From: Escherichia coli
GTDB taxonomy: Bacteria > Pseudomonadota > Gammaproteobacteria > Enterobacterales > Enterobacteriaceae
Assembly (NCBI RefSeq): GCF_003018255.1
Contig: NZ_CP027440.1
Reading direction: 5' to 3' (one strand)
DNA length: 64,000 bases
The translations under genes were made by a program, and so were the position numbers. Of this stretch, positions 2,340 through 57,761 are shown in pieces. Each line of letters starts with the position of its first letter. The stretch's first letter is position 1. The notes under the pieces were generated by a model. It was not told where the DNA came from and did no database searches. It saw nothing but the letters and a program-made list of their open reading frames with translations.

Positions 2340-3407
2340 TTAACTGAACTTGCTCTGCGCCCACATCACGCCGCTGGCATACTCTGGCGGCAGCAGCGGG
2401 ATTAAGGCTTCCAGCGTCGCGGTCAGACGCGATGTGTCGCTGTCGGTCAAATTCAGATGCCCCACTTTACGCCCCGGACGGACTTCTTTGTCGTACCAGT
2501 GCAGATGCACCAGCGGCAGTTTCAGCCAGTCATAATTCACATCGCTACCAATCAGGTTGATCATCACCGACGGACTATTCACTACCGGTTGCGGTAACGG
2601 CAGATCGGTAATCGCCCGCAGATGCAGCTCAAACTGGCTGATGCTGGCACCGTTTTGTGTCCAGTGACCGCTGTTATGCACACGCGGAGCCAGTTCGTTG
2701 ATCAGCAGACCTTGCGGGGTGACAAAACACTCCATTGCCATCACGCCTACATAGCCCAGCTCCTGCATAATCGCCGACAGCATCTCTTCGGCTTGCGCTT
2801 GCTGCTGCGCATTGGCCTGCGGGAAAGCGACGCTGGTGCGCAAAATACCGTCCTGATGCAGGTTATGCGTCAGCGGATAAAACACGGTGCTGCCATCAAA
2901 ACCGCGCGCGCCAACCAGCGACACTTCACCAGAGAAGTTAATGCCCTGCTCGACAATACATTCGCCGTAACACTCTGCCGGTAACTGTTCGGTTTCATTT
3001 GCGCGTAAACGCCATTGACCGCGACCGTCATAGCCACCAGTGCGACGCTTAACAATCGCCAGTTCACCTAAACGATCAAACACCGCAGGCCACTCGCTGC
3101 GATCGGCAAGTAACTGCCACGGCGCGGTCGGCAGGTGGAGCTTATCGAAAAGCTGCTTCTGAGTCAGACGGTCGGCAATAATCGGGAACACATCGCGGTT
3201 CACAAAGGCCGGATGGCGCGCCAGCTCGCGGGTTAATGCGGTTTCCGGCCAGCGTTCGATCTCAGCGGTAATCACACTTTGTTGAACAGGCACCGCCGCC
3301 GGTTCAGCGTCCAGCCCGACCGGCCAGACAGCAATGCCTAACGGTTCGCCTGCCTGACGCAGCATACGGCCTAACTGCCCGTTACCGAGGACGCAAACCT
3401 GTTTCAT
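2340..3407 (-). CDS. purK: N5-carboxyaminoimidazole ribonucleotide synthase
   Basis: 355-aa [19 protein letters not shown]... (ATP-grasp), overlaps purE stop; purEK operon arrangement. Confidence 0.95.
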
Positions 3408-44827: not shown

Positions 44828-45259
44828 TTATGTTGGCGTTTTCTATTCAGTATAGAAGTCGGAGCGGCTGGGCGAGATGCGGAAGTTCTGGAATGTTTCT
44901 TTTTTTGATGATGGTGACTGAAGCAAATTGGCTACATTTTGCAATATGACAAGTTATGGCAGTGCGGACTGGTGGCGAAGAATTTTGACGATTGAGGCAT
45001 GCAGAATAAAACGGGTTCAGCTTCAGTTGATCAAATGAGGATTGAGAAGTCCGAAACAGGACTTACTGTATAAATAAACAGCTATTTTGCTAAGGAAGGG
45101 TAAGATAACGGCGGGTGCCTGAAGCTTTCCGGTTTCAGGTTTACTCTGAGGTCTGGAAAGATGAAGCCCCAGGAGATATTTCTATCAATCCTGGGGCTGC
45201 CACTCCAAACCCAAACAATTTGGATGGTAGTCCCTTCTTCGCATGGAGGCAATATAAAC

Positions 45260-45397
45260 ATGCTGACGAAATATGCCCTTGTGGCGGTCATGGTGCTGTG
45301 TTTAAAGGTAATTTTTATCCGGTTTATTCGGAGCAATAGTGATTGCAAGCGTATCAAGAAAATTCTTATAGAACTGAGCAATTTGTTGCCAGAATGA
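45260..45397 (+). pseudogene. hokE: hokE toxin gene remnant (Hok N-terminus intact for about 15 codons, then unrelated sequence)
   Basis: ATG 45260 encodes MLTKYALVAVMVLCL (Hok family N-terminus); after about 45304 the frame reads KVIFIRFIRSNSD..., unlike Hok; expected position downstream of ybdK. Confidence 0.5.
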
Positions 45398-46330
45398 CGA
45401 TACAACCTGATCCAGAAGTAATATAGAACGCCCGTCGCAAACTTGGGGAGTATGCAGAACATGGAATGCCTGAGAAGGATAACCACTCCAGTCAACGGCA
45501 ATGACGCACAACGTAAGGTCTCGGGGCTGAAACCGGGTAATATTATGAAAAATAGCCGGGATATCGCGGTGTAAAGCGTCATTGCCTGGCAGGCGATCGA
45601 TGGGCTTAATCTTGTTTTAACCTGAGCATTACCTGGCATATACCGTCCAATGCTGGTAAGGATGAGGGATGCGTCCCGACTAAGCGCAGCAGTGGCGTCA
45701 AGGATGGCATTCTGGCGGTACTGATGAAATGGAGTCAAATCATCACGGAAAAACTTTTGGCATGATGAGCGAACGGGCATAGAGGTGATCTCCTGAATTG
45801 TTAGCACAACCAGTCGACCACAAAACTCTATGCCCGTCTTTTTTACCCGCCTATTACTGAGGATTTCTCCGTACCATTACCGGCATTTGTTATCTTTCAT
45901 TGCTACATACGTCATCCCCCAACAAAGCAATGCTTTATAATATTATCGTAATGTCTTATTTTTTATTATTGCGATGGCTTTCTGAACATTTTATAGTGTT
46001 AGGTGTAAATCATTTATATTGATTCACGATAGGAGGATATGGACACCACACTTATTTTATGTCACTCAAGAAACACTTAAAATTCGTTGCACGTGTTATT
46101 ATTCTATTAAATAATTGCACATAATAGATTTTTTCTATTATGTAATAAAATAAAACACTATTAGATACTAGATATGCTAATGGTTTTATACTCTAAATAA
46201 TTCGAGTTACAGGTAGTGTATAAGTGAGTTCCCAAGAGCTTGCATAAGTAAGTGACTGAGGGAGCGTAAGTGCAGTACATGCAACTTGTTGCATGACAAA
46301 TATATTATCTATTAACAATAAGAGGTTATA

Positions 46331-46693
46331 ATGAAGAAATATATTTTAGTATCTCTGATGGGATTAAGTTTGAACGCATTTGCGGGTGGCAGCGGCTGGA
46401 ACCCAGACAGGGTAGACCCGAGCCGTTGTGTTATGGCGACGGGGTCAGGTCCTACCTCTGCGGGTTATATGGTATACCGAACGACTGACTCAGTGTGTAT
46501 GCAGGGTATAAATGAAGGAAAAGTGAAAGGTGTCCATATTTATGATGGGCATCATGAGTTCAATGATGGTACTGTTGACACGTTTAGCGGTAATGTTACC
46601 CCAATATCACCTTTGACATTAAAAACTGATGTTCAAAAAGTTAATAAAGTTGGCATCAAACGCTGGTGGTATAAAGCTAGCTGGATTAAATAA
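46331..46693 (+). CDS. small secreted protein, candidate cargo of the adjacent Aat-like system (dispersin/CexE-like; predicted mature N-terminus Gly-Gly-Ser-Gly)
   Basis: 120-aa ORF with RBS aagagg, signal peptide MKKYILVSLMGLSLNAFA and predicted signal peptidase I site AFA|GGSG; immediately upstream of the PABCD-like operon. Confidence 0.7.
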   Translation: MKKYILVSLMGLSLNAFAGGSGWNPDRVDPSRCVMATGSGPTSAGYMVYRTTDSVCMQGINEGKVKGVHIYDGHHEFNDGTVDTFSGNVTPISPLTLKTDVQKVNKVGIKRWWYKASWIK

Positions 46694-46732
46694 AAAATAC
46701 CTTGCCAAACGTTAATAAATAACTTAAACACA

Positions 46733-46768
46733 TCGAATGCGAATCTTTGCATTCGGTGTATTTTTTTC
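46733..46768 (+). terminator. intrinsic terminator/attenuator between cargo gene and transporter operon
   Basis: Hairpin cgaatgcgaatctttgcattcg followed by tgtattttttt. Confidence 0.65.
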
Positions 46769-46774
46769 AAAAAA

Positions 46775-47902
46775 ATGATTGTTTTTTTTTACATTAAAGA
46801 TGCTTTGCAAAATATTGCTGAAAATAAAAAGCAAATTTTCACATTTGTGATTTTTTTAACACTTAGTTTCATCGGTATAACAATTACTGATTCGTTGATT
46901 TTTAGTGTTTCAAAAAAAGCAGAAGAAGAGCTCAAAACTTATGGTGACAATGTTATTTCTATTGACATCTATAATCAAAAAAATATTAATGAGGTAATGC
47001 AAGTATTATCTCCTATATATAAATCATTATCATACTCAAAAACTTATATATTCAATGGCGGTCAAACACCTTACGATGACAAACCTTTATCAGTGACAGG
47101 TATTGATGCGCTAGGTTTATCCATAAATAAAATAACCACCAATAACATGGAATTTAATGGAGATGTTGCTATTGTTAGTGAGGATAGTCCATATTTACAC
47201 AATGGGATTGTTTTCCTTAATGGGATACCGTTTAAAATTATTGGCGTAATTCCAAAAATGAAAATGGACTTCCTGGACAGTCTTGGGTTATCGAAATATC
47301 AGAGCAACAATCAGCTCTTTGTCCCCTTAAGTACATTATTCAGATTCAAGCTAAGCAGTAATATTGACAATGTTAAGATAGTGTTAAGTGATAAAGTTGG
47401 CGAAAATGATATTAACACAACAAAAAAAACGCTTGGTGAGGAAAAAATACCAGAATACAATATTATAACAGCTCTTGATGTAAGAACCACCGTCGACAAA
47501 GTGTTGAATAGATTCTCCATATTAACAAACACTATATATATAATGTTGACATTGTTTGCTGCGGTTATATGCATTGTGTTGTGTAAACGAACATTTTCTT
47601 CCCGAAGCACAGAATTTGCACTAAAAATTATCCACGGTATAAAACAAAACTCGATAATTCTCGTTGTCATCATAGAATCAATGATTACATTAGTAATTTG
47701 TTTATTCAACTCATTGGTCGCTTCTTATTTTATTATGTTATGGATGTCTCAAATGCTATCTACAGATATTAAAATAAGAGTTGTAATGATTTCATTATCG
47801 TTAAGTGGCGTGCTGTTAATTTTTCTGTGTTCGAATATATTTTTTGGAAAATTGTTTTTCAGAATAAACCCTATATATTTAATTAAAGGTCGCCAGCAAT
47901 GA
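46775..47902 (+). CDS. ABC transporter permease, FtsX/MacB-like (AatP-like)
   Basis: 375-aa ORF: N-terminal TM helix, large extracytoplasmic domain, C-terminal cluster of TM helices; stop overlaps next gene start (ATGA). Confidence 0.75.
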   Translation: MIVFFYIKDALQNIAENKKQIFTFVIFLTLSFIGITITDSLIFSVSKKAEEELKTYGDNVISIDIYNQKNINEVMQVLSPIYKSLSYSKTYIFNGGQTPYDDKPLSVTGIDALGLSINKITTNNMEFNGDVAIVSEDSPYLHNGIVFLNGIPFKIIGVIPKMKMDFLDSLGLSKYQSNNQLFVPLSTLFRFKLSSNIDNVKIVLSDKVGENDINTTKKTLGEEKIPEYNIITALDVRTTVDKVLNRFSILTNTIYIMLTLFAAVICIVLCKRTFSSRSTEFALKIIHGIKQNSIILVVIIESMITLVICLFNSLVASYFIMLWMSQMLSTDIKIRVVMISLSLSGVLLIFLCSNIFFGKLFFRINPIYLIKGRQQ

Positions 47903-49113
47903 GATTTTTATCAAAGTCTGTTGTTCTGTTTTTTTGTGTTTATATGGTAACTCCATATGCCAAATCTCAGGAATGCATTATGGATGATTACTTCAATAAG
48001 ACTAATATTTTTTCTTCTTATATTCTGGAACAAGAGCATAATAAGAACGAAGAATCTAATAATGTTGCCTCACTTTTACCAAGTATGTCTATTGGTTTGG
48101 GGCAGTATATTAATAATAATAAGAGATTGTCTACTTTCGGGGATAGTGATATATATTTCTCTCTTTCACAGGATATATTTTCTGCATATAAATATAAAAA
48201 TAATAAAGATAAATTAGCCATCCAAAATAACCTGCAAAATTTAGAGTTGCAGAGAAAAAGATATGAGTATTTGTTGGGTTTTTACTATAGCAGCATTAAT
48301 TATACATATCAACTTGAACAAATTCAGTTAACTAAAAAACAAATCCAAAAACTAGAGACAGATTACAATATATCTAAAGAATTATTTAAGATGGGTAAAG
48401 CACCTTATCTTGACACGGAAATAAAAGGAAATAATCTAGATAAAATGAGAAATACACTTAATGAAGTGGAACTGGAAAGGCAGTATTCTCTAATGAAGAT
48501 TAAAAGTGATTATTCTGTCCCAGAAGAATTGTTGCACAAAGTAACAATTGAAGATATAAAAGCGTGTAAAAGATCAAGTATTATAGAATTAGTCAAAAAT
48601 ATTTATAAAAAAAAGAATGAGTCAGTCGATATTGATAACAAAATTAGTGAGTCATCACTCTTACCATCGTTATATTTCTCTGTAGGTTTAACTCCTAAAA
48701 ATGGTGGGACATTGAGCGATATCAGCCTTAGAGAAATGGATTATAACGCTAGTATTAGTGTGAATGTGCCGTTGAGCGATTTTTTTTCATCATTCAACAG
48801 TAAAAAAACAAATGCAATTAATTCAATGAAAAACAATATTGATAACCTTAATGATTTTAGAGAGCTTGAGTTGTTACGTTTTGATATCAATAACAAACTT
48901 CATATCATAAAGAATAAAATTCCGATTCTTAAAAATAATTTATATATAAAAAACAAAGAACTAAACTATATTTCTGAAAGAGTAAAAAATAAGAAAGAAA
49001 GTGTACTTACGTATTACTCACTACAGGATGATATTTATGAAATTGAGCTTAATATCAAAAGAAATGAAAATGAACTTATGTATTATGAACTTTATCTTGA
49101 TTTTCTTGGTTAG
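47899..49113 (+). CDS. outer-membrane efflux protein, TolC-like (AatA-like)
   Basis: 404-aa ORF with signal peptide MRFLSKSVVLFFCVYMVTPYAKSQ and coiled-coil-rich sequence; operon position. Confidence 0.6.
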   Translation: MRFLSKSVVLFFCVYMVTPYAKSQECIMDDYFNKTNIFSSYILEQEHNKNEESNNVASLLPSMSIGLGQYINNNKRLSTFGDSDIYFSLSQDIFSAYKYKNNKDKLAIQNNLQNLELQRKRYEYLLGFYYSSINYTYQLEQIQLTKKQIQKLETDYNISKELFKMGKAPYLDTEIKGNNLDKMRNTLNEVELERQYSLMKIKSDYSVPEELLHKVTIEDIKACKRSSIIELVKNIYKKKNESVDIDNKISESSLLPSLYFSVGLTPKNGGTLSDISLREMDYNASISVNVPLSDFFSSFNSKKTNAINSMKNNIDNLNDFRELELLRFDINNKLHIIKNKIPILKNNLYIKNKELNYISERVKNKKESVLTYYSLQDDIYEIELNIKRNENELMYYELYLDFLG

Positions 49114-49849
49114 TTTTTTTTCTCCACAAGCCTTTTGTGATGTTTACTATGGCGTCTTACATGGGAATAAAATCATGCATTTTAAGAGCCCATACTCTGG
49201 AATTGTGAAATTATCGGATATGGAAGAAGGCGAAATAAAACAGAACGTCACATTATTTGATGTGTTGAATTATGAGTATAATTCCAAGATTCTTTTAATT
49301 GAAAAAAAACTACAGGCTGAATGTAAAAAAAAACGTAGACTTCATAATGACTATAAAGAGAGTAAGCATTCCTATGAGTTGGGATATATATCCAAAGATG
49401 AATTACTTGACATAGAAGATAAAATAAATGATTCGAACATGGCTATTATAAATCAGAATATAGAGAGAAATAATATTACTAATATATTAAAACTTGCAAA
49501 ACCGTTGGTATCATCGCCTTTTATCATAAGGAATATTGCTGTAAGCAATGGGCAATATGTCAATTCAGGAGACGATATCGTAGATATTGAACTTCTGGAT
49601 AAGTTTTTCATTGATGTTAAAATTGATCCTGTGTCTGAACAAGGAAATATCAAAGAAAAAAAGATAAGATATCACTCTTTGGTCAATGGATTATCCGGTT
49701 TAGCATCTGTAGTCCGCATCACCCGTACCTTCGAAAATGGCCAGGATGATAAAAGTTCTGGTTTGAGGGTTGTAACATTGGCCATTGATGGTGATCATAA
49801 AAAACTCGCTGAATTACTCGATACTGCTTTTGAGATTGAAATAAAGTGA
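49064..49849 (+). CDS. periplasmic adaptor/membrane-fusion-like protein (AatB-like); start uncertain (alternatives 49001, 49037, 49070)
   Basis: ORF 49001..49849 overlaps preceding gene; N-terminal hydrophobic segment MKMNLCIMNFILIFLVSFF; stop overlaps GTG start of the ATPase gene. Confidence 0.55.
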   Translation: MKMNLCIMNFILIFLVSFFSPQAFCDVYYGVLHGNKIMHFKSPYSGIVKLSDMEEGEIKQNVTLFDVLNYEYNSKILLIEKKLQAECKKKRRLHNDYKESKHSYELGYISKDELLDIEDKINDSNMAIINQNIERNNITNILKLAKPLVSSPFIIRNIAVSNGQYVNSGDDIVDIELLDKFFIDVKIDPVSEQGNIKEKKIRYHSLVNGLSGLASVVRITRTFENGQDDKSSGLRVVTLAIDGDHKKLAELLDTAFEIEIK

Positions 49850-50475
49850 TTAAATTAGATATTTATGAAAAACAGTTCAAGGATAAAAAAATCCTTAGTT
49901 CTATATCTGTTAATGTTGAAAAAGGTTCATTTCATGTTATTACAGGGCCTTCCGGGGTCGGAAAGAGTTCACTGTTAAACATACTTGGTTTGTTGGATAG
50001 TGAATTTGATGGGAATTATGAGTTTTGTGGTAAAAATATTAATCCGAAGGATTACAATAAAACTTCTCGTATAAGGAAGGAGTATTTTGGTTTTATATTT
50101 CAAGATTCTCTCATTAATGAAAAACAAAGTGTACTACGTAACATTCTATGCTCCGTAGATTATCCTTATTTAAAATTCGCAGAGAAAAATGCGCATACCA
50201 TGCTTGAAATCGTTGGACTCCCTATGCCTGATATGAAGGTTGTGAACCTTTCAGGGGGAGAAAAACAGCGTCTTGCTCTTGCAAGAGCTTTAATAAAAAA
50301 ACCTAAAATTCTTTTGGCCGATGAACCCACCGCGAGTCTGGATAAAAATAATAAAAGGATTATTATGAATATTTTATCCGAATATAATAAAGATGGTGGA
50401 AGTGTCGTCATGGTGACACATGATCTTGAACTAATCACAAGCGACATGAGTTTAATTAAATTAGAGAACAACTAG
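49846..50475 (+). CDS. ABC transporter ATP-binding protein (AatC-like)
   Basis: 209-aa ORF with Walker A GPSGVGKSS, ABC signature LSGGEKQRLALARAL, Walker B ILLADEPTASLD. Confidence 0.85.
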   Translation: MIKLDIYEKQFKDKKILSSISVNVEKGSFHVITGPSGVGKSSLLNILGLLDSEFDGNYEFCGKNINPKDYNKTSRIRKEYFGFIFQDSLINEKQSVLRNILCSVDYPYLKFAEKNAHTMLEIVGLPMPDMKVVNLSGGEKQRLALARALIKKPKILLADEPTASLDKNNKRIIMNILSEYNKDGGSVVMVTHDLELITSDMSLIKLENN

Positions 50476-50483
50476 CCAACAAG

Positions 50484-51704
50484 ATGTTTTTGCATATTTT
50501 ATTATTTATCTTCATGCTTTGTTATTATCTGATTTCTAAAGGTAATATTAAGTTATTTTTATTTTTCGTATTAATATATTCTTTTGGCTTGTCATTTGAA
50601 ATGGTTAATGAATATTTTTTTTCGTTAACTCCAACAGTTCATTTCAATTCGATTATTTTATTATATGTTGCTTTATGTAATATCCTGATATTTACCCTAT
50701 ATTACAAGTTATCAAAGAACGGTATTTGGGGATGTGCGATATACGCCGCTGCGATTACCGCTATTTCAGCGATAAAAATATCAATCCCATTAAACCCAAT
50801 AATATTATATTATAAATACAACCTATTTATTCTACCGCAAACAAATTCTCCCTTGCTTAATCTGTATGTTATAAATTTATTACCAGCATTATTTTTTTGT
50901 TGTGATTTTAAAAAAATAATGCTGGTAATTCTATGCTATTTGGCTATGATATTACCCTGTCGCATGCTAATTTCAGATAAAATACCAAAGAGTAATATCG
51001 CTGTTATTCAAGTTGGTCTTTATTATAAAAATGGAGGGACACCTGAAAGGTTTTATAATGACATGGCGAAATTTATAAAAGAAAACAGTGTTGACCTTAT
51101 TGTTTTTTCTGAGAATGTTTACTTTGGTTATAAAAATGAAGTTATTAAAAAAAATACGGATGATTTGTTACTAAAGATTAAAACTGATTCAACACTTAAG
51201 CAAAAAGCATTTTTATTTAATTTTTTTGGATACAAAAAGTTTAATAATGTTATATCCATGTTCTTGCATGTGGATAATTCGCAATTACATCAGAAAACAG
51301 CATTAATTCCTTTTATAGAAAAAAGAGGCGTATTCAATGCTCCAGAAAAGCTTTCATCAGAATATCTAAATATCGATAAAAAAATAAAAAATAATAATAC
51401 ATTTAAGCTTCATGGCTTAAGTTATAGCATATATATATGCTATGAAGCACTGTTTCCTGAAAAATATGTACACAACGGGGTCGTAATAACACAATCTGAT
51501 TACATAAGACTTAATAACGGTAGGGGATATAAGACTACATTGGTTAACGGTAGCTTACTTGCAAAGTTTTCCGTTGCACCAAACACCAAGTTAATAAATG
51601 TCCAGAATTATGGTGGAACTATTGTTTTTAATAATGATTGGGAAATTGACTGGGATATTTATAACAAATCCAAAAAAGAACATTTTTTTGTGGTTACTTT
51701 ATAA
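50484..51704 (+). CDS. apolipoprotein N-acyltransferase (Lnt)-like membrane acyltransferase (AatD-like)
   Basis: 406-aa ORF: polytopic N-terminus plus C-terminal nitrilase/CN-hydrolase-like domain with candidate E-K-C triad contexts (LIVFSENVY, KTALIPFIEKRG, ICYEALFPE). Confidence 0.75.
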   Translation: MFLHILLFIFMLCYYLISKGNIKLFLFFVLIYSFGLSFEMVNEYFFSLTPTVHFNSIILLYVALCNILIFTLYYKLSKNGIWGCAIYAAAITAISAIKISIPLNPIILYYKYNLFILPQTNSPLLNLYVINLLPALFFCCDFKKIMLVILCYLAMILPCRMLISDKIPKSNIAVIQVGLYYKNGGTPERFYNDMAKFIKENSVDLIVFSENVYFGYKNEVIKKNTDDLLLKIKTDSTLKQKAFLFNFFGYKKFNNVISMFLHVDNSQLHQKTALIPFIEKRGVFNAPEKLSSEYLNIDKKIKNNNTFKLHGLSYSIYICYEALFPEKYVHNGVVITQSDYIRLNNGRGYKTTLVNGSLLAKFSVAPNTKLINVQNYGGTIVFNNDWEIDWDIYNKSKKEHFFVVTL

Positions 51705-51851: not shown

Positions 51852-52687
51852 CTACACTTTAGCCAGCCCATGCTTTCCACCGGGGAATGGGCTGACGGTA
51901 TCCATAAAGTGACGAACCTTTTTCAACAGTTGCCACATTGAACGGCACTGGTGATTTCGGGTTATTGTTTCATGAAGCGCCTGCCACAACCGTTCGACAT
52001 GATTGACCCATGGCGAGTAAATTGGCTGATAAATCACCCTGAACTTTGGGTTTGCTTTCAGCCAGCGCAACGTTTCACAGCTTTTGTGGGTGATGTAGTT
52101 ATCGACAATGAGCGTAATCTTTTTTGCCCGTCAGTATGTCTCCTTCAGATGTTTTAACAGCCTGATAAATAAGGATGAACCTTTACTGTTTCCACCCACG
52201 TAGCTGACTTTGCCCGTACCACTGTGCAGCGCACCGGCAAGATAGTACTTTTCATTCCGGCCCGGCGTAACAACGCGCTTTTGCTGCCCGCGTAACTGCC
52301 AGTCTGCGCCGATTTTGGGATTGAGGTGGATCTCCACTTCATCTTCGTAAAACACAGGGTGTTCTATGCTACAACTGACTAACGCTACATTAATCGCTGC
52401 CATTTTTTCTTCCTTATTCGGGCCCCGGATACGCAGTGTTGGTGCTGCTCTGCGCCATACCAGTTCGGCTGCAGGTAACCATCGCCGGGAGAATGCTTAA
52501 CAAGCTCACGCAGCAATGCGCAAATATGCTCGAACGGCCAGCGCCTCTCACGTCCTGACGGCAATGACTTCAGGCCTTCAACACCCGACAGCGTGAACCA
52601 GTTAATCCAGCGACCAATCGATGAGCGAGCACAGCAGAGTGTTCTGGCAGCATGACTGACGGTGTCACCACGATGCAGCATCAGCAT
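51852..52687 (-). pseudogene. IS630-family transposase, disrupted into three reading-frame fragments
   Basis: Minus-strand ORFs 52385..52687 (HTH-like N-terminus), 52131..52403 and 51852..52070 (C-terminus ...YSPWVNHVERLWQAL...) in different frames. Confidence 0.75.
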
Positions 52688-53872: not shown

Positions 53873-54780
<908 letters not shown>

Positions 54781-55362: not shown

Positions 55363-57603
55363 TCAGAAGTGAGTATTAATGCTCATATACCACGTACGTC
55401 CCGGCTCGTTATAGGTATACGCCCCGGCACCGGCGATATAGTTGGCTCCTGCCAGATCGCCCGTGGTCTGGGCATTACCCGCACGCCACAAACGTTTGTC
55501 GAACAGGTTGTCCACGCCGCCGGTCAGACTGACATTCTTCGTCACATCCCAGGTCGCGCTCAGACCCACAATGCTGTAAGGACTGATTTCTTTGGTTTCC
55601 GGTCCAACCGCTGGCTGACCTTTATAGTTGTACTTCTTCGGCTGCTGCTTGCCGTACCAGGTGAAGGTTGTTTGCATCGACAAATCTTCCCGTGCCTGCC
55701 AGCTCAGCGTTGAGTTCAACGTATACTCCGGGATGATCGACAAACGGTCGCCCGTGGTTTTGTTTTCACTCTTCAGCATATAAGTGATGTTATTGGTCCA
55801 CATCACCGTTTCGCTAACCGGTACGTTTAACGATCCTTCCAGACCTTCAACCACCGCTTTCGGTACGTTATCCCACTGATAGAGATCGGTGCCGACTGCG
55901 TTTTGCCCTACAGCCACATAGCCCGCTTCAATCTTATTGCGATAATCGTTACGGAACCAGGTGACGCCCGCCAGCCAACCGTCGCGTTTGAACTCCAGAC
56001 CAATCTCTTTGTTGATGCTGGTTTCCGCTTTCAGGTCATCATTACCTTGCAGATAGCAGCCGCCCGCGCTGGCATAGCAGCCCTGACCTTTACTGTAGAG
56101 AATGTAGTTTGGGTTAGTCTGGTACAGACTCGGCGCTTTATAAGCGCGGGCAATGCCCATTTTCAGCGTGAAGTCATCGCCTAAACCTTGCGATATGTTC
56201 AGCGCCGGACTCCAGTTATTGCCGACAATACTGTGATGATCGAAACGCAGCCCCGGCGTTACGATGGTGCTGTCAGTCAGCTCCATATTGTTTTCGGCAA
56301 ACAGCGAGAAAATTTCTGCTTTTGAATACGGGCTACGGTCGGTGGCACTCACGCCATCAATAGCGCCGCCGGTATTCGTCCCGGTGAGCGCCTGGGTGTT
56401 GGAACTCAAGTCCTTCATCCGCTGCTGATTCCACTCCGTACCCAGCGTCAGCGTCTGGTTAACGAGGAAATCAATCGGCAGGTTAACTTCGCTGTGCAGC
56501 ATCACGTCATCGAGATCGATATCGACGAAATCCTGTGTCGCTTTTTCGTTAAATTTCCCTTCGGTACCGCCCGCCAGACCTTCCGGAATACGCGAGTTAC
56601 GGGTGTGTTCGTACTGCACCCAGTTGCTGGTGGTCACGCCGTTATCCCAGCCGCCGTTCCATGTCAGCGAGTAGTTCTGGCGATACAGACGGTTGGTTTC
56701 ATCGCCATATTTCGAGCGGGTATAGGAGTCAGAGTTGGTGTTCTGGGTATCGCCCGCATACAGGTTACCCTGGCGGCTGTAACCCGCTTCCAGTTCCAGC
56801 GATTGCAATGGTGCGAAGTCCCAGCGCACCACGCCGTTAATATCTTTGTTGATCACCCCTTCGCGCCCGGCTGGTAACGTCGTGGCATACGTTCCGGCAC
56901 GCGCGGACTGATGGCCCTGGTTGATATCCCACGCGTCAGCCTGAGTTTTGTCGAGGTTGCCATACAAGCGGAAGCTGAATTCGTCGCCCAGCGGACCGGT
57001 GAGGCTAAAGTTAGTGCGTTTGGTGGCACCTTCCTCTTTATGTTCTGGCGCATTGAAATAAGCGTCCCACGAGCCGTGCCACTCACCACTGCCTTTTTTG
57101 GTAATGATGTTAACCACGCCGCCCGCCGCGCCGTTGCCATAACGCGCAGCTGCCGGACCACGTAGAACTTCAATACGTTCAATCATTTCAGGCGGCACCC
57201 AGGAGGTATCACCACGGGTATCGCGCTCGCCACGCCAGCCCTGACGCACCGAGTTACGGCTGCTTACCGGCTTGCCGTCAATCAAAATCAGCGTGTTTTC
57301 CGGACCCATACCGCGAATATCAATCTGGCGGTTATTCCCACGCTGACCACTGGTGGAGTTACCGGTCAGGTTAACGCCTGGCATGGTACGGATGATCTCC
57401 GACACATCGCGGGCAACCGGGTTTTTGCGGATTTCATCTGCGGTGATGGTCGAAACGCCAGGTGCCTGCAAGTTCTGCTCGGCGGCGGTAACGACAATGG
57501 TATCGTCATGTGAAACAGGAGTATCGGTCGGCTCTTGTGCCTGTGCTACCCCATAAATCCCCAGATTGACCAACAAGGCCAGGGAATGAATCTTCTTGTT
57601 CAT
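55363..57603 (-). CDS. fepA: ferric enterobactin outer-membrane receptor (TonB-dependent)
   Basis: ORF 55363..57663; start placed at MNKKIHSLALLVNLGIYGVAQA; C-terminal ...YMSINTHF. Confidence 0.95.
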   Translation of the reverse strand: MNKKIHSLALLVNLGIYGVAQAQEPTDTPVSHDDTIVVTAAEQNLQAPGVSTITADEIRKNPVARDVSEIIRTMPGVNLTGNSTSGQRGNNRQIDIRGMGPENTLILIDGKPVSSRNSVRQGWRGERDTRGDTSWVPPEMIERIEVLRGPAAARYGNGAAGGVVNIITKKGSGEWHGSWDAYFNAPEHKEEGATKRTNFSLTGPLGDEFSFRLYGNLDKTQADAWDINQGHQSARAGTYATTLPAGREGVINKDINGVVRWDFAPLQSLELEAGYSRQGNLYAGDTQNTNSDSYTRSKYGDETNRLYRQNYSLTWNGGWDNGVTTSNWVQYEHTRNSRIPEGLAGGTEGKFNEKATQDFVDIDLDDVMLHSEVNLPIDFLVNQTLTLGTEWNQQRMKDLSSNTQALTGTNTGGAIDGVSATDRSPYSKAEIFSLFAENNMELTDSTIVTPGLRFDHHSIVGNNWSPALNISQGLGDDFTLKMGIARAYKAPSLYQTNPNYILYSKGQGCYASAGGCYLQGNDDLKAETSINKEIGLEFKRDGWLAGVTWFRNDYRNKIEAGYVAVGQNAVGTDLYQWDNVPKAVVEGLEGSLNVPVSETVMWTNNITYMLKSENKTTGDRLSIIPEYTLNSTLSWQAREDLSMQTTFTWYGKQQPKKYNYKGQPAVGPETKEISPYSIVGLSATWDVTKNVSLTGGVDNLFDKRLWRAGNAQTTGDLAGANYIAGAGAYTYNEPGRTWYMSINTHF

Positions 57604-57761
57604 TGTTTTATTCCTGCATTTTTGCCACGAATTGCAACTGTCGGGCATGGTCGCCATCAACACGACGCATCCCGCTACCGCGAAAACCTTTGATCCTGAA
57701 AGACACGCAGTGCAGCTGATTAATTAATGTCCGCGCTTCCCACGGCGCGCCATTACGCTAT

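Follow-up and report, generated by a model that had tools for sequence, protein, structure and literature searches.

Lipoproteins acylated on an N-terminal glycine, together with the Aat system that exports them, were established as a class in 2020–2021. In EAEC the cargo is Aap, encoded on the plasmid pAA beside aggR and kilobases away from the transporter genes aatPABCD; LC-MS places its cleavage at Ala21/Gly22, and its N-terminal peptide is palmitoylated, with a mass shift of +238 Da (PMC7478709). In ETEC H10407 the cargo gene, cexE, lies directly upstream of aatP, separated from it by a 272-bp spacer. The mature N-terminus of CexE is GGGNS by Edman sequencing, a single N-terminal glycine suffices for acylation by AatD, and residues E217, K278, E286 and C325 of ETEC AatD are needed for this; a mix of glycine and serine in the first five mature residues serves as the criterion of the class, and in 18.4% of 826 Aat systems the cargo gene precedes aatP by no more than 400 bp (PMC7943197). 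The known regulators of the family belong to the AraC type and recognise asymmetric, A/T-rich TATC sites (PMC6392122). An aap-like gene (47% amino-acid identity), with aat-like genes at 30–47%, has been described in aggR-negative travellers' diarrhoea isolates, in a study that does not treat locus structure, promoters, repeats or terminators (PMC7251025).

The locus considered here is an ordinary member of this dispersin/Aat family. It lies in a 64-kb stretch of Escherichia coli DNA, which we call the window (Table 1); its six genes, a cargo gene and aatPABCD, are all intact there, and they form an island on the chromosome, with IS remnants on either side and ybdK and entD as its neighbours. 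The five aat genes and their order are those of EAEC, but the Aat proteins are only 30–40% identical to their EAEC counterparts (AatD, 39%), the location is chromosomal rather than on a plasmid, and the cargo gene, instead of being remote, sits directly upstream of aatP, as cexE does in ETEC. The protein has a 6-residue insertion relative to Aap, the leader contains an ERIC repeat, and there is neither an AggR gene nor an AggR-type promoter; the Rns/CfaD-dependent promoter and nearby cfaD of H10407 are likewise without counterpart, and the spacer before aatP is reduced to 81 bp. The identities reported for the aggR-negative isolates match this locus, and may refer to this chromosomal allele or to a plasmid allele about 76% identical to it.

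An index of public assemblies has the exact cargo protein in 1593 blocks, and in 10/10 of the places listed it adjoins ybdK, which suggests that the island has been retained. In the 99.8%-identical chromosome of DETEC-S792, RefSeq lists the transposase gene at the left edge as frameshifted and partial. The AT-rich DNA that follows it is present in only 3/5426 complete E. coli genomes; when positions 45808–46186 were compared with plasmids, only the IS end matched (the first ~62–76 nt, found at IS ends on many plasmids), and no similarity beyond it was found.

Table 1. Features of the island, in window coordinates
Feature	Position	Strand	Remarks
IS4/IS5-family transposase remnant	45023..45883	-	Left island edge; RefSeq annotation of DETEC-S792
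AT-rich island-specific upstream DNA	45884..46186	+	27-36% GC; holds the sigma-70-like match and the second palindrome
Sigma-70-like match, TTGCGA-17-TATAGT	45969-45997	+	Only upstream match; 334 bp upstream of cargo
Second palindrome	46121-46141		Within AT-rich upstream DNA; inverted-repeat scan
ERIC/IRU miniature repeat, 118-bp copy	46187..46304	+	79.7% identity to 127-nt consensus; two internal deletions
Inverted repeat 8+2+8, CATGCAAC-TT-GTTGCATG	46278..46295	.	Right end of ERIC copy; 35 bp before ATG
Shine-Dalgarno AAGAGG	46320..46325	+	5 nt before cargo ATG; read from sequence
Cargo ORF	46331-46693	+	120 aa; begins MKKYILVSLMGLSLNAFA/GGSGW
Cargo signal peptide, residues 1-18 (MKKYILVSLMGLSLNAFA)	46331..46384	+	Predicted signal peptidase I site AFA/G
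Mature dispersin-like cargo	46385..46693	+	102 aa plus stop; starts GGSGWN; Gly19 is the predicted N-acylation site
Intrinsic-terminator-like hairpin, cargo/aatP gap	46730..46767	+	Stem-loop 46730-46759, then A+T7 46760-46767
aatP, MacB/LolC-like permease	46775..47902	+	Intact in this window; T9 tract 46782-46790 is codons 3-6
aatA, TolC-like outer-membrane channel	47899..49113	+	404-aa form has signal peptide; RefSeq start 47980
aatB, periplasmic adaptor	49001..49849	+	RefSeq start 49085
aatC, LolD/MacB-type ABC ATPase	49846..50475	+	LolD 2e-44, FtsE 1.5e-45
aatD, Lnt-like N-acyltransferase	50484..51704	+	TIGR00546 Lnt at 3.5e-9; catalytic E210, K271, E279, C319
IS630-family transposase remnant	51852..52687	-	Right island edge, before entD

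Cargo protein and export genes

The cargo shares 46.7% identity with Aap of EAEC 042 (tblastn) and matches the dispersin structure PDB 2JVU, whose solved chain begins GGSGWN, at an E-value of 3.3e-23 (phmmer); PF28204, 'Dispersin', is among its precomputed Pfam hits. Its family assignment rests on these three lines, and scans of it against local copies of Pfam-A, NCBIfam and PADLOC gave no match. Identity to CexE is only 27%, though CexE shares the alanine at the end of the signal followed by a glycine-rich N-terminus. Two cysteines conserved with Aap, C33 and C56, and also W118, are invariant in the homologue alignment.

Judged by alignment, the signal peptide has an MKK n-region, a hydrophobic core (YILVSLMGLSL) and a cleavage site, AFA/GGSG, and lacks a lipobox cysteine. 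Cleavage at other small residues, after G20 or S21, is also possible in this stretch. The segment SLNAFA/GGSGWN is the same in the cargo and in Aap, and all 7 aligned homologues have A18, G19 and G20, including Aap and CexE, whose processing has been determined by experiment. The mature protein opens with GGSGW, the same five residues as in Aap; four of them are glycine or serine, and this fits the Gly/Ser mix of the class. The mature N-terminus is thus almost certainly Gly19. The original prediction, which had described a 120-aa protein of the Aat/Cex cargo class with a mature glycine start, agrees with the ORF found, with a cleavage region that is that of Aap, with the homology to Aap and CexE, and with the adjoining aatPABCD genes.

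The four catalytic residues of AatD, counterparts of those needed in ETEC, are invariant in an alignment with the ETEC and EAEC proteins. By homology, Sec would export the cargo precursor, signal peptidase I would cut it after Ala18, and AatD would place one acyl chain on the amino group of Gly19; AatP and AatC would then pull the lipoprotein out of the inner membrane, and AatB and AatA would hand it on to the cell surface. The homology and the conserved motifs are plain in the alignments, and it is from them that cleavage, acylation and secretion would be expected. We consider it likely that the cargo is a dispersin-family (Aap/CexE) coat protein and a substrate of the aatPABCD system encoded directly downstream.

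The export genes vary among the 13 island copies compared (the window and 12 other loci). Near its start aatP has a T-tract with three alleles: T9, as here and in DETEC-S792; T8, found for instance in JNE23-011, which breaks the ATG frame in 6/13 copies and leaves an in-frame GTG start; and a GTG-interrupted form, in which the slippery tract is gone and the frame is kept. The T8 allele hints at decay of aatP. In some assemblies (L011, L015 and L019) aatA is split.

Base composition and the upstream repeat

The cargo gene had been described as close to 50% GC by eye and set against extremely AT-rich transporter genes, as a sign of mosaic origin. Windowed calculation bears out the difference, at a smaller size: the cargo gene is 42.4% GC—50% only in its first 120 nt, and 35% in its last third—and aatPABCD is 29.7%. 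That the cargo was drawn from a GC-richer donor and joined to AT-rich transporter genes might seem to follow, since no 363-nt window of aatPABCD exceeds 36.6% and GC3 differs too (38.8% against 25–31%). But the same gap, of 10–15 points, recurs in aap (41.7%), in cexE (43.0%) and in the plasmid variants (39–42%), set beside 26–36% GC for the aat genes. From one lineage to another the cargo has diverged to much the same degree as the aat genes (76% and 70% amino-acid identity, respectively). The cargo protein itself is soluble and richer in Gly, Ala, Pro and Arg; the transporter genes encode membrane proteins rich in Ile, Phe, Lys and Asn. The amino acids of the cargo combined with the codon usage of the aat genes predict 40.4% GC, against 42.8% observed, whereas host codon usage would give 48.3%. 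Amino-acid composition on aat codon usage thus accounts for about 10.7 of the 13 points (~80%), which leaves a mosaic origin unsupported; we regard it as highly improbable. On this comparison the cargo's raised GC content is a trait of the whole protein family, with no sign of separate origin.

The DNA just upstream of the cargo gene is a copy of the ERIC/IRU repeat, a co-transcribed element of 127 bp with 7-bp terminal repeats (PMC2229807). A profile HMM from which this copy had been left out matches it over its full length (E 8.8e-25; model positions 3–130 of 134). Aligned with five E. coli ERIC copies and the consensus, it has 24 substitutions in 118 aligned positions and deletions of 4 nt and 5 nt. 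The left terminal repeat, TATACTC, is intact (46187–46193); the right end, AAATATA, is degenerate and matches GAGTATA at 5/7 positions. The ERIC2 primer sequence has no match in the window at up to 3 mismatches, because this copy has an indel at that place. Like other members of its family—present in 5425/5426 E. coli genomes, at a median of 5 detectable places—it is intergenic and next to a gene start; it differs in being shortened to 118 bp, and in three substitutions that weaken its long stem and give rise to a local hairpin of 8 bp. Homology with related loci starts only at about 46290–46318; beyond that point the window has nothing in common with the upstream regions of five other cargo lineages. 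The element probably inserted some 26 bp before the cargo ATG, and did so in this chromosomal lineage alone.

It is this local hairpin that the original prediction took for an operator, calling it a perfect palindrome. Its position is as claimed, 35 bp upstream of the ATG, but the 18-mer is not perfect: its reverse complement is CATGCAACAAGTTGCATG, and 8-bp arms flank a non-symmetric TT. Were it the genuine site of a dimeric regulator, giving the cargo independent control, the three substitutions that perfect its arms would have been selected. Their occurrence is indeed somewhat unlikely under pure drift: in simulations a perfect 8-bp local inverted repeat arises in only 0.86% of drifted ERIC copies. 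The right arm with the next 3 nt (TGCATGACA) also recurs, 9/9, at a comparable position in front of a cargo variant of 73% identity (L078/L079), so that some function of this segment is possible. The palindrome is also the same in the 12 other island copies, but all 13 are near-identical throughout, so this identity carries no information. The left arm, moreover, with its adjoining CTTG, is invariant in all ERIC copies—it is the right arm that departs from the family sequence GAAGTATG, at 3 positions—and neither the palindrome nor the ERIC copy is present at the related plasmid, ETEC and EAEC cargo loci.

Wider searches point the same way. The window contains no second copy at up to 3 mismatches, and among 100,044 species genomes the 18-mer has no enterobacterial match, only a Planctomycetota repeat and scattered other non-enterobacterial occurrences. 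Gene annotation of the island reveals no regulator gene, AraC-type or other, to bind such a site, and the known AraC-type regulators of the family bind asymmetric sites. Inverted repeats of this kind are common enough: the window has 23 perfect ones (arms of 8 bp or more, spacers of up to 6 bp), and shuffling the 523-bp upstream region yields one in ~10% of cases. As an RNA hairpin the palindrome is unremarkable (-8.5 kcal/mol, z -0.71). In an informal comparison, PurR/LacI-type, CRP, FNR, LexA, Fur and TyrR boxes and sigma-54 promoters were rejected for misfits of spacing or core. A private operator is, in our estimate, very unlikely. By any test available the palindrome appears to be no ancestral operator, and if transcribed it would form a small hairpin in a long structured leader.

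Terminator-like hairpin, promoters and expression

Between cargo and aatP the terminator scan finds a 13-pair stem with 5 G-C pairs, a 4-nt loop and an A followed by U7, which bears out, as a feature, the hairpin and T-run noted in this gap earlier. It folds at -17.4 kcal/mol (z -5.88), and none of 200 shuffles is as stable (0/200). Stable hairpins also lie 3' of cexE and aap, and all the related cargo genes examined have one there. A predicted hairpin is thus a plain property of the locus; termination and read-through at it are what such a structure would be expected to bring about. The aatP gene starts at the eighth nucleotide past the U-tract, with 7 nt in between, and no Shine-Dalgarno-like motif comparable to the AAGAGG of the cargo precedes its ATG. 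The layout therefore appears to set dosage: a strong Shine-Dalgarno sequence for the cargo, then a terminator that would stop most transcripts. With a U7 terminator, and with neither a Shine-Dalgarno sequence nor room for an activator-dependent promoter of its own before aatP, the transporter would be made from read-through, at a much lower level. High expression of the cargo with attenuated read-through, as originally proposed, is plausible. An efficient U7 terminator might leave aatPABCD with hardly any expression.

Layouts of this kind, with a leaky terminator between a structural gene and its export genes, are known from hlyCA/BD of E. coli and from the lantibiotic genes nisA/BTC. The likeness—an abundant substrate gene, an intrinsic terminator, a transporter expressed by read-through—is an analogy of function only.

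The only sigma-70-like match upstream of the cargo gene is a distant one (Table 1), and the island carries no activator gene; the locus may therefore be silent. The published rule for AggR sites, WWWWWWWTATC plus a -10 element at 21–23 bp (PMC6392122), picks out the known aap promoter, which has a spacing of 22 and lies 134 bp from the start, and a candidate for cexE, but finds no AggR/Rns-type promoter within 600 bp upstream of the cargo or before aatP; two W7TATC strings (45937–45947 and 46299–46309) lack a suitably spaced -10. The 73%-identical variant, in contrast, has an adjacent AraC-family gene, the product of which is 34% identical to the C-terminal domain of AggR. An Rfam scan of 45700–46900, at E-values up to 1, returned only two chance-level matches, so no known riboswitch, thermometer or sRNA is apparent there. 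Sequestration of the Shine-Dalgarno sequence by the left end of ERIC was considered but is not claimed here; the outcome depends on the 5' end assumed (partner probability 0.17 vs 0.86).

Two other readings bear on expression, and both strike us as rather unlikely. The main role of the hairpin might be to stabilise a 3' end or to form a barrier to processing, letting the cargo mRNA outlive the aat segment, or termination might be complete and aatPABCD be served by internal promoters. The plasmid variants lend this some weight, for they keep the stem, with G-U pairs and one compensatory change, despite poor U-tracts (GUUUAUAC); the operon on pAA of O104:H4 has internal transcription starts before aatB and aatD (PMC5066232), and there are promoter-like matches just inside aatP here (46788–46816 and 46856–46884). 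Such matches, however, number 3 where 5.5 are expected in shuffled sequence, and in this locus a canonical U7 tract comes after the stem. Alternatively, the island might be a decaying, largely silent remnant, its AraC-type activator and promoter lost through IS and ERIC insertions, with cargo little expressed or exported in most carriers. The IS remnants on both sides, the want of a regulator gene and of an AggR/Rns-type promoter, the activator gene still present beside the 73%-identical variant, the T8 allele and the split aatA genes are all in keeping with this, as is the composition of the island, very AT-rich DNA being a typical target of H-NS. Against it stand the six intact genes of this window, the many assemblies that have the exact cargo, and the aatP alleles themselves, of which T8 keeps an in-frame GTG start and the GTG-interrupted form keeps its frame while losing the slippery tract.

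A bolder version of events seems to us a good deal less probable again. On this account ERIC insertion and IS-mediated loss of the activator rewired the dispersin system to independence of AggR/Rns; the ERIC leader, through its 8-bp hairpin and the pairing of its left-end CUCU with the Shine-Dalgarno sequence, would provide post-transcriptional control; and T8/T9 variation in aatP would act as a slipped-strand switch of export.

Significance of the locus

The GC contrast and the supposed private operator are no pointer to new biology. What the locus adds to the family is a divergent, chromosomal member that is common among E. coli assemblies and lacks the usual AggR/Rns regulator, and with it the question of how a dispersin system is expressed without an AraC-type activator. 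There is a practical side, too: enteroaggregative E. coli is diagnosed with probes for aat and aap, and this variant is a possible source of confusion in such tests.

A divergent dispersin locus

The cargo, a dispersin-like protein of 120 aa, finds no match in local Pfam-A and NCBIfam scans. It is 46.7% identical over its full length to Aap of EAEC 042 (tblastn), and it matches the solved dispersin structure 2JVU (phmmer, E 3.3e-23); precomputed Pfam annotation assigns PF28204 'Dispersin' to the protein and to its relatives, and AatD, encoded downstream, is 39% identical to AatD of EAEC and 37% to that of ETEC. These comparisons place the locus firmly within the Aat/dispersin system, as one of its divergent members.

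Features of the cargo–aatPABCD region and its flanks (window positions)
Feature	Position	Strand	Remarks
W7TATC string	45937–45947
Sigma-70-like match	45969–45997		TTGCGA-17-TATAGT
Second perfect inverted repeat	46121–46141		CATAATAG-ATTTT-CTATTATG (8+5+8)
ERIC/IRU element	46187–46304		full length, by alignment with other copies
Palindrome	46278–46295		CATGCAACTTGTTGCATG
Palindrome right arm + 3 nt	46290–46298		TGCATGACA
W7TATC string	46299–46309
Cargo ORF	46331–46693	+	120 aa, N-terminus MKKYILVSLMGLSLNAFAGGSGWNPDRVDPSRC
Hairpin	46730–46759		13 pairs, 4-nt loop, then A+U7 (terminator scan)
aatP	46775–47902	+	MacB/LolC-like permease
Homopolymer	46782–46790		aatP codons 3–6
aatA	47899–49113	+	TolC-like protein
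aatB	end 49849	+	periplasmic adaptor
aatC	49846–50475	+	LolD-like ATPase
aatD	50484–51704	+	Lnt-like acyltransferase; TIGR00546, 3.5e-9
IS3-family element	53905–54627 onward		between entD and fepA; L001 16106–19803
fepA	55363–57663		766-aa ORF; annotated as frameshifted in DETEC-S792

In three complete E. coli genomes the chromosome carries DNA 99.8% identical to the block. There it forms an island with ybdK and entD on either side and, at its edges, two transposase genes: one partial, of IS4/IS5, the other frameshifted, of IS630. The identical cargo protein occurs in 1593 indexed blocks of public assemblies—ybdK adjoins it in all 10 of the places listed—and a version of the block about 79% identical is found on five E. 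coli plasmids. At an identical locus RefSeq starts aatA at 47980, and so drops the N-terminal signal peptide of the longer ORF (MRFLSKSVVLFFCVYMVTPYAKSQ...); EAEC AatA has a signal peptide. The start of aatB is likewise uncertain (49001–49084).

The mature N-terminus and the GC content of the cargo

That the mature cargo would begin with glycine, as the original prediction had it, is supported by comparison. The signal peptide opens with a basic n-region (MKK), continues with a hydrophobic core of 11 residues and closes with the c-region NAFA; the 12 residues at the predicted cut, SLNAFA/GGSGWN, are the same in the cargo and in Aap. In Aap the cut between Ala21 and Gly22 has been measured by intact-mass LC-MS, and the Gly22 peptide gains 238 Da only when AatD is present (PMC7478709); Edman sequencing of CexE, the ETEC cargo, gave GGGNS after Ala19, and one N-terminal Gly is enough for AatD-dependent acylation of mCherry (PMC7943197). 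An alignment of seven homologues, Aap and CexE among them, leaves A18, G19, G20, C33, C56 and W118 invariant. Other small-residue sites would place the cut after G20 or S21; we infer, strongly, that it falls after Ala18. The AatD of the window keeps E210, K271, E279 and C319, which correspond to four residues of ETEC AatD whose mutation abolishes acylation (PMC7943197). Homology to Aap and to CexE predicts the route: the precursor would be exported by Sec, cleaved after Ala18 by signal peptidase I and acylated at Gly19 by AatD; the lipoprotein would then be pulled from the inner membrane by AatP and AatC, and delivered to the surface through AatB and AatA.

The cargo gene had also been described as close to 50% GC beside very AT-rich transporter genes, which suggested a mosaic origin. 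The gap is real, but it amounts to about 13 points, not 20: the cargo is 42.4% GC (GC3 38.8%), with 50% in its first 120 nt only and 35% in its last third, versus 29.7% for aatPABCD overall, 27–34% for the five genes individually (GC3 25–31%) and 36.6% for the highest 363-nt window within them. The gap recurs at related loci, where the cargo gene has 41.7% GC (aap of EAEC 042), 43.0% (cexE) or 39.4% and 41.9% (the plasmid variants), and the accompanying aat genes 26–36%. If its amino acids were encoded with the codon usage of the neighbouring aat genes, the cargo would be expected to reach 40.4% GC, versus 42.8% observed; with that of the host (ybdK and entD), 48.3%. Gly, Ala, Pro and Arg make up 23% of the cargo versus 12% of the Aat proteins, and Phe, Ile, Lys, Asn, Tyr and Met 29% versus 42%. 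Because of these figures, some four-fifths of the gap is attributed to protein composition. Codon usage in the cargo is AT-biased like that of its neighbours, and a mosaic origin finds no support.

The palindrome and the promoter region

The inverted repeat upstream of the cargo was taken at first for a perfect palindrome, and for an operator-like site of the cargo's own. It is no perfect 18-mer but consists of perfect 8-bp arms flanking TT, and it lies within an ERIC copy. The 128-bp stretch 46187–46314 belongs to a repeat that 5425 of 5426 complete E. coli genomes contain, at a median of five detectable places in each; the best matches lie at well-known intergenic sites (ler–espG of the LEE, yafP–prfH, yeiS–preT, ybhJ–ybhI and pgk–fbaA). 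An HMM built from five other ERIC copies, with the window copy left out, aligns with that copy over model positions 3–130 of 134 (E 8.8e-25). The consensus of five copies is 127 nt long, the published ERIC length (PMC2229807), and the window copy departs by 24 substitutions in 118 aligned positions and 9 deleted bases. Across all ERIC copies the palindrome's left arm and centre (CATGCAACTTG) do not vary; its right arm is GTTGCATG versus GAAGTATG in the family, and these three changes raise self-complementarity from 5/8 to 8/8.

Drift may have produced the palindrome, or its right arm may be a patch of native promoter DNA. The window contains 23 comparable inverted repeats, and shuffling the upstream region yields one in 10% of cases; among ERIC copies drifting in simulation, only 0.86% gained one. 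The right arm with the next 3 nt has a 9/9 match about as far upstream of the 73%-identical cargo variant (L078 ~3086–3094, L079 ~2913–2921; about −49 to −41), where CATGCAA stands 21 nt further upstream. Under either origin the palindrome is a side product of the ERIC end rather than a conserved operator. It is absent at related loci: the ERIC HMM has no match upstream of the plasmid variants, the 52%- and 73%-identical variants, cexE or aap, and similarity to the window starts there only at 46290–46331, depending on the locus. The island, moreover, contains no regulator gene, judged by gene content in matching complete E. coli genomes. The palindrome is unchanged in 12 of 12 other island copies (L010–L021), which are near-identical throughout and so uninformative. 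No second copy occurs in the 64-kb window at up to three mismatches, and a search of 100,044 species, with one genome apiece, finds the 18-mer only in a Planctomycetota repeat and scattered other non-enterobacterial genomes.

The Planctomycetota repeat is multi-copy in two MAGs, CSMAG_1807 and B1_G9 (L026–L046, L060–L073), where the 18-mer often stands as an inverted pair spaced 47 bp apart; it has no relation to the E. coli locus. The closest relative of the window's ERIC copy is the ler–espG copy of the LEE pathogenicity island (L004, L005); their similarity runs about 10 nt past the ERIC end (TATCTATTA, 46305–46314), which is not so in four other copies compared. The second inverted repeat, in the AT-rich stretch ahead of the ERIC copy, is no better conserved or explained than the palindrome.

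Activators known for the family are AggR and Rns/CfaD, whose sites have the form WWWWWWWTATC and precede a −10 element by 21–23 bp (PMC6392122). As implemented, this rule hits the characterised promoter of aap exactly, at a spacing of 22 and 134 bp from the start, and also yields a candidate promoter for cexE; it finds no match within 600 bp upstream of the cargo, and none before aatP. Neither of the two W7TATC strings has a suitably spaced −10, and the downstream one is just 21 bp from the cargo ATG. About 1.5 kb upstream, the 73%-identical variant has a divergent AraC-family gene with 34% identity to the C-terminal DNA-binding domain of AggR, and because that variant keeps such a gene, the comparison suggests that the chromosomal island lost its activator. 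The cargo is probably regulated without AggR. Upstream of the cargo there is a single sigma-70-like match, and the promoter scan gave fewer such matches than shuffles predict; if this promoter is used, the ERIC copy would lie within a leader of about 330 nt, a placement typical of ERIC elements, which share transcripts with adjacent genes (PMC2229807). CUCU at the ERIC left end (46191–46194) can pair with AGAG of the cargo Shine-Dalgarno sequence (46321–46324), but the predicted probability depends on the transcript start: 0.86 for a start at 46150 and 0.17 for one near 46004.

From cargo to transporter

The predicted terminator-like hairpin and T-run between cargo and transporter stand: the terminator scan matches there, and the fold is −17.4 kcal/mol (z −5.88). 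Two plasmid variants retain the stem, with G-U changes, one compensatory pair and poor U-tracts; stable hairpins also follow cexE (−20.7 kcal/mol, z −5.1) and aap (−17.1 kcal/mol, z −4.7). Because all of these have one, a hairpin after the cargo is a family trait. The aatP start lies 8 nt past the U-tract (7 nt intervene) and is preceded by A7, without a Shine-Dalgarno sequence; that of the cargo, AAGAGG, stands 5 nt before the ATG. Such a layout would fit excess cargo, with transporter made from predicted read-through, the stoichiometry being set by the strong cargo ribosome-binding site and the predicted terminator. On pAA of EAEC O104:H4, the most abundant antisense RNA is a 90-nt transcript from the 3' end of aap (PMC5066232); a promoter scan of 45750–46900 found no promoter-like site on the minus strand at the equivalent place.

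The homopolymer early in aatP is polymorphic among near-identical island copies (the window and L010–L021). The window and four loci have T9, with MIVFFYIK intact; six have T8—also found in assembly GCA_000351685.1 (L017)—which breaks the ATG frame and brings into frame a GTG at 46756, within the terminator stem; in two, the run is broken by a synonymous change from GTT to GTG. Phase variation or decay could account for the differences, as could homopolymer error in some of the assemblies.

The Aat system and its glycine-acylation class are already known, as is the cargo-directly-upstream layout: of the 826 systems in Icke et al., 18.4% have a cargo upstream of aatP and within 400 bp of it (PMC7943197). 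The 47%-identical variant has been noted, too: Petro et al. reported an aap-like gene of that amino-acid identity in aggR-negative isolates, together with aat-like genes (30–47% identity), their significance unknown (PMC7251025). What appears to be undescribed is the absence of an AggR-type promoter, the polymorphic T-tract of aatP and the ERIC copy by the ribosome-binding site.
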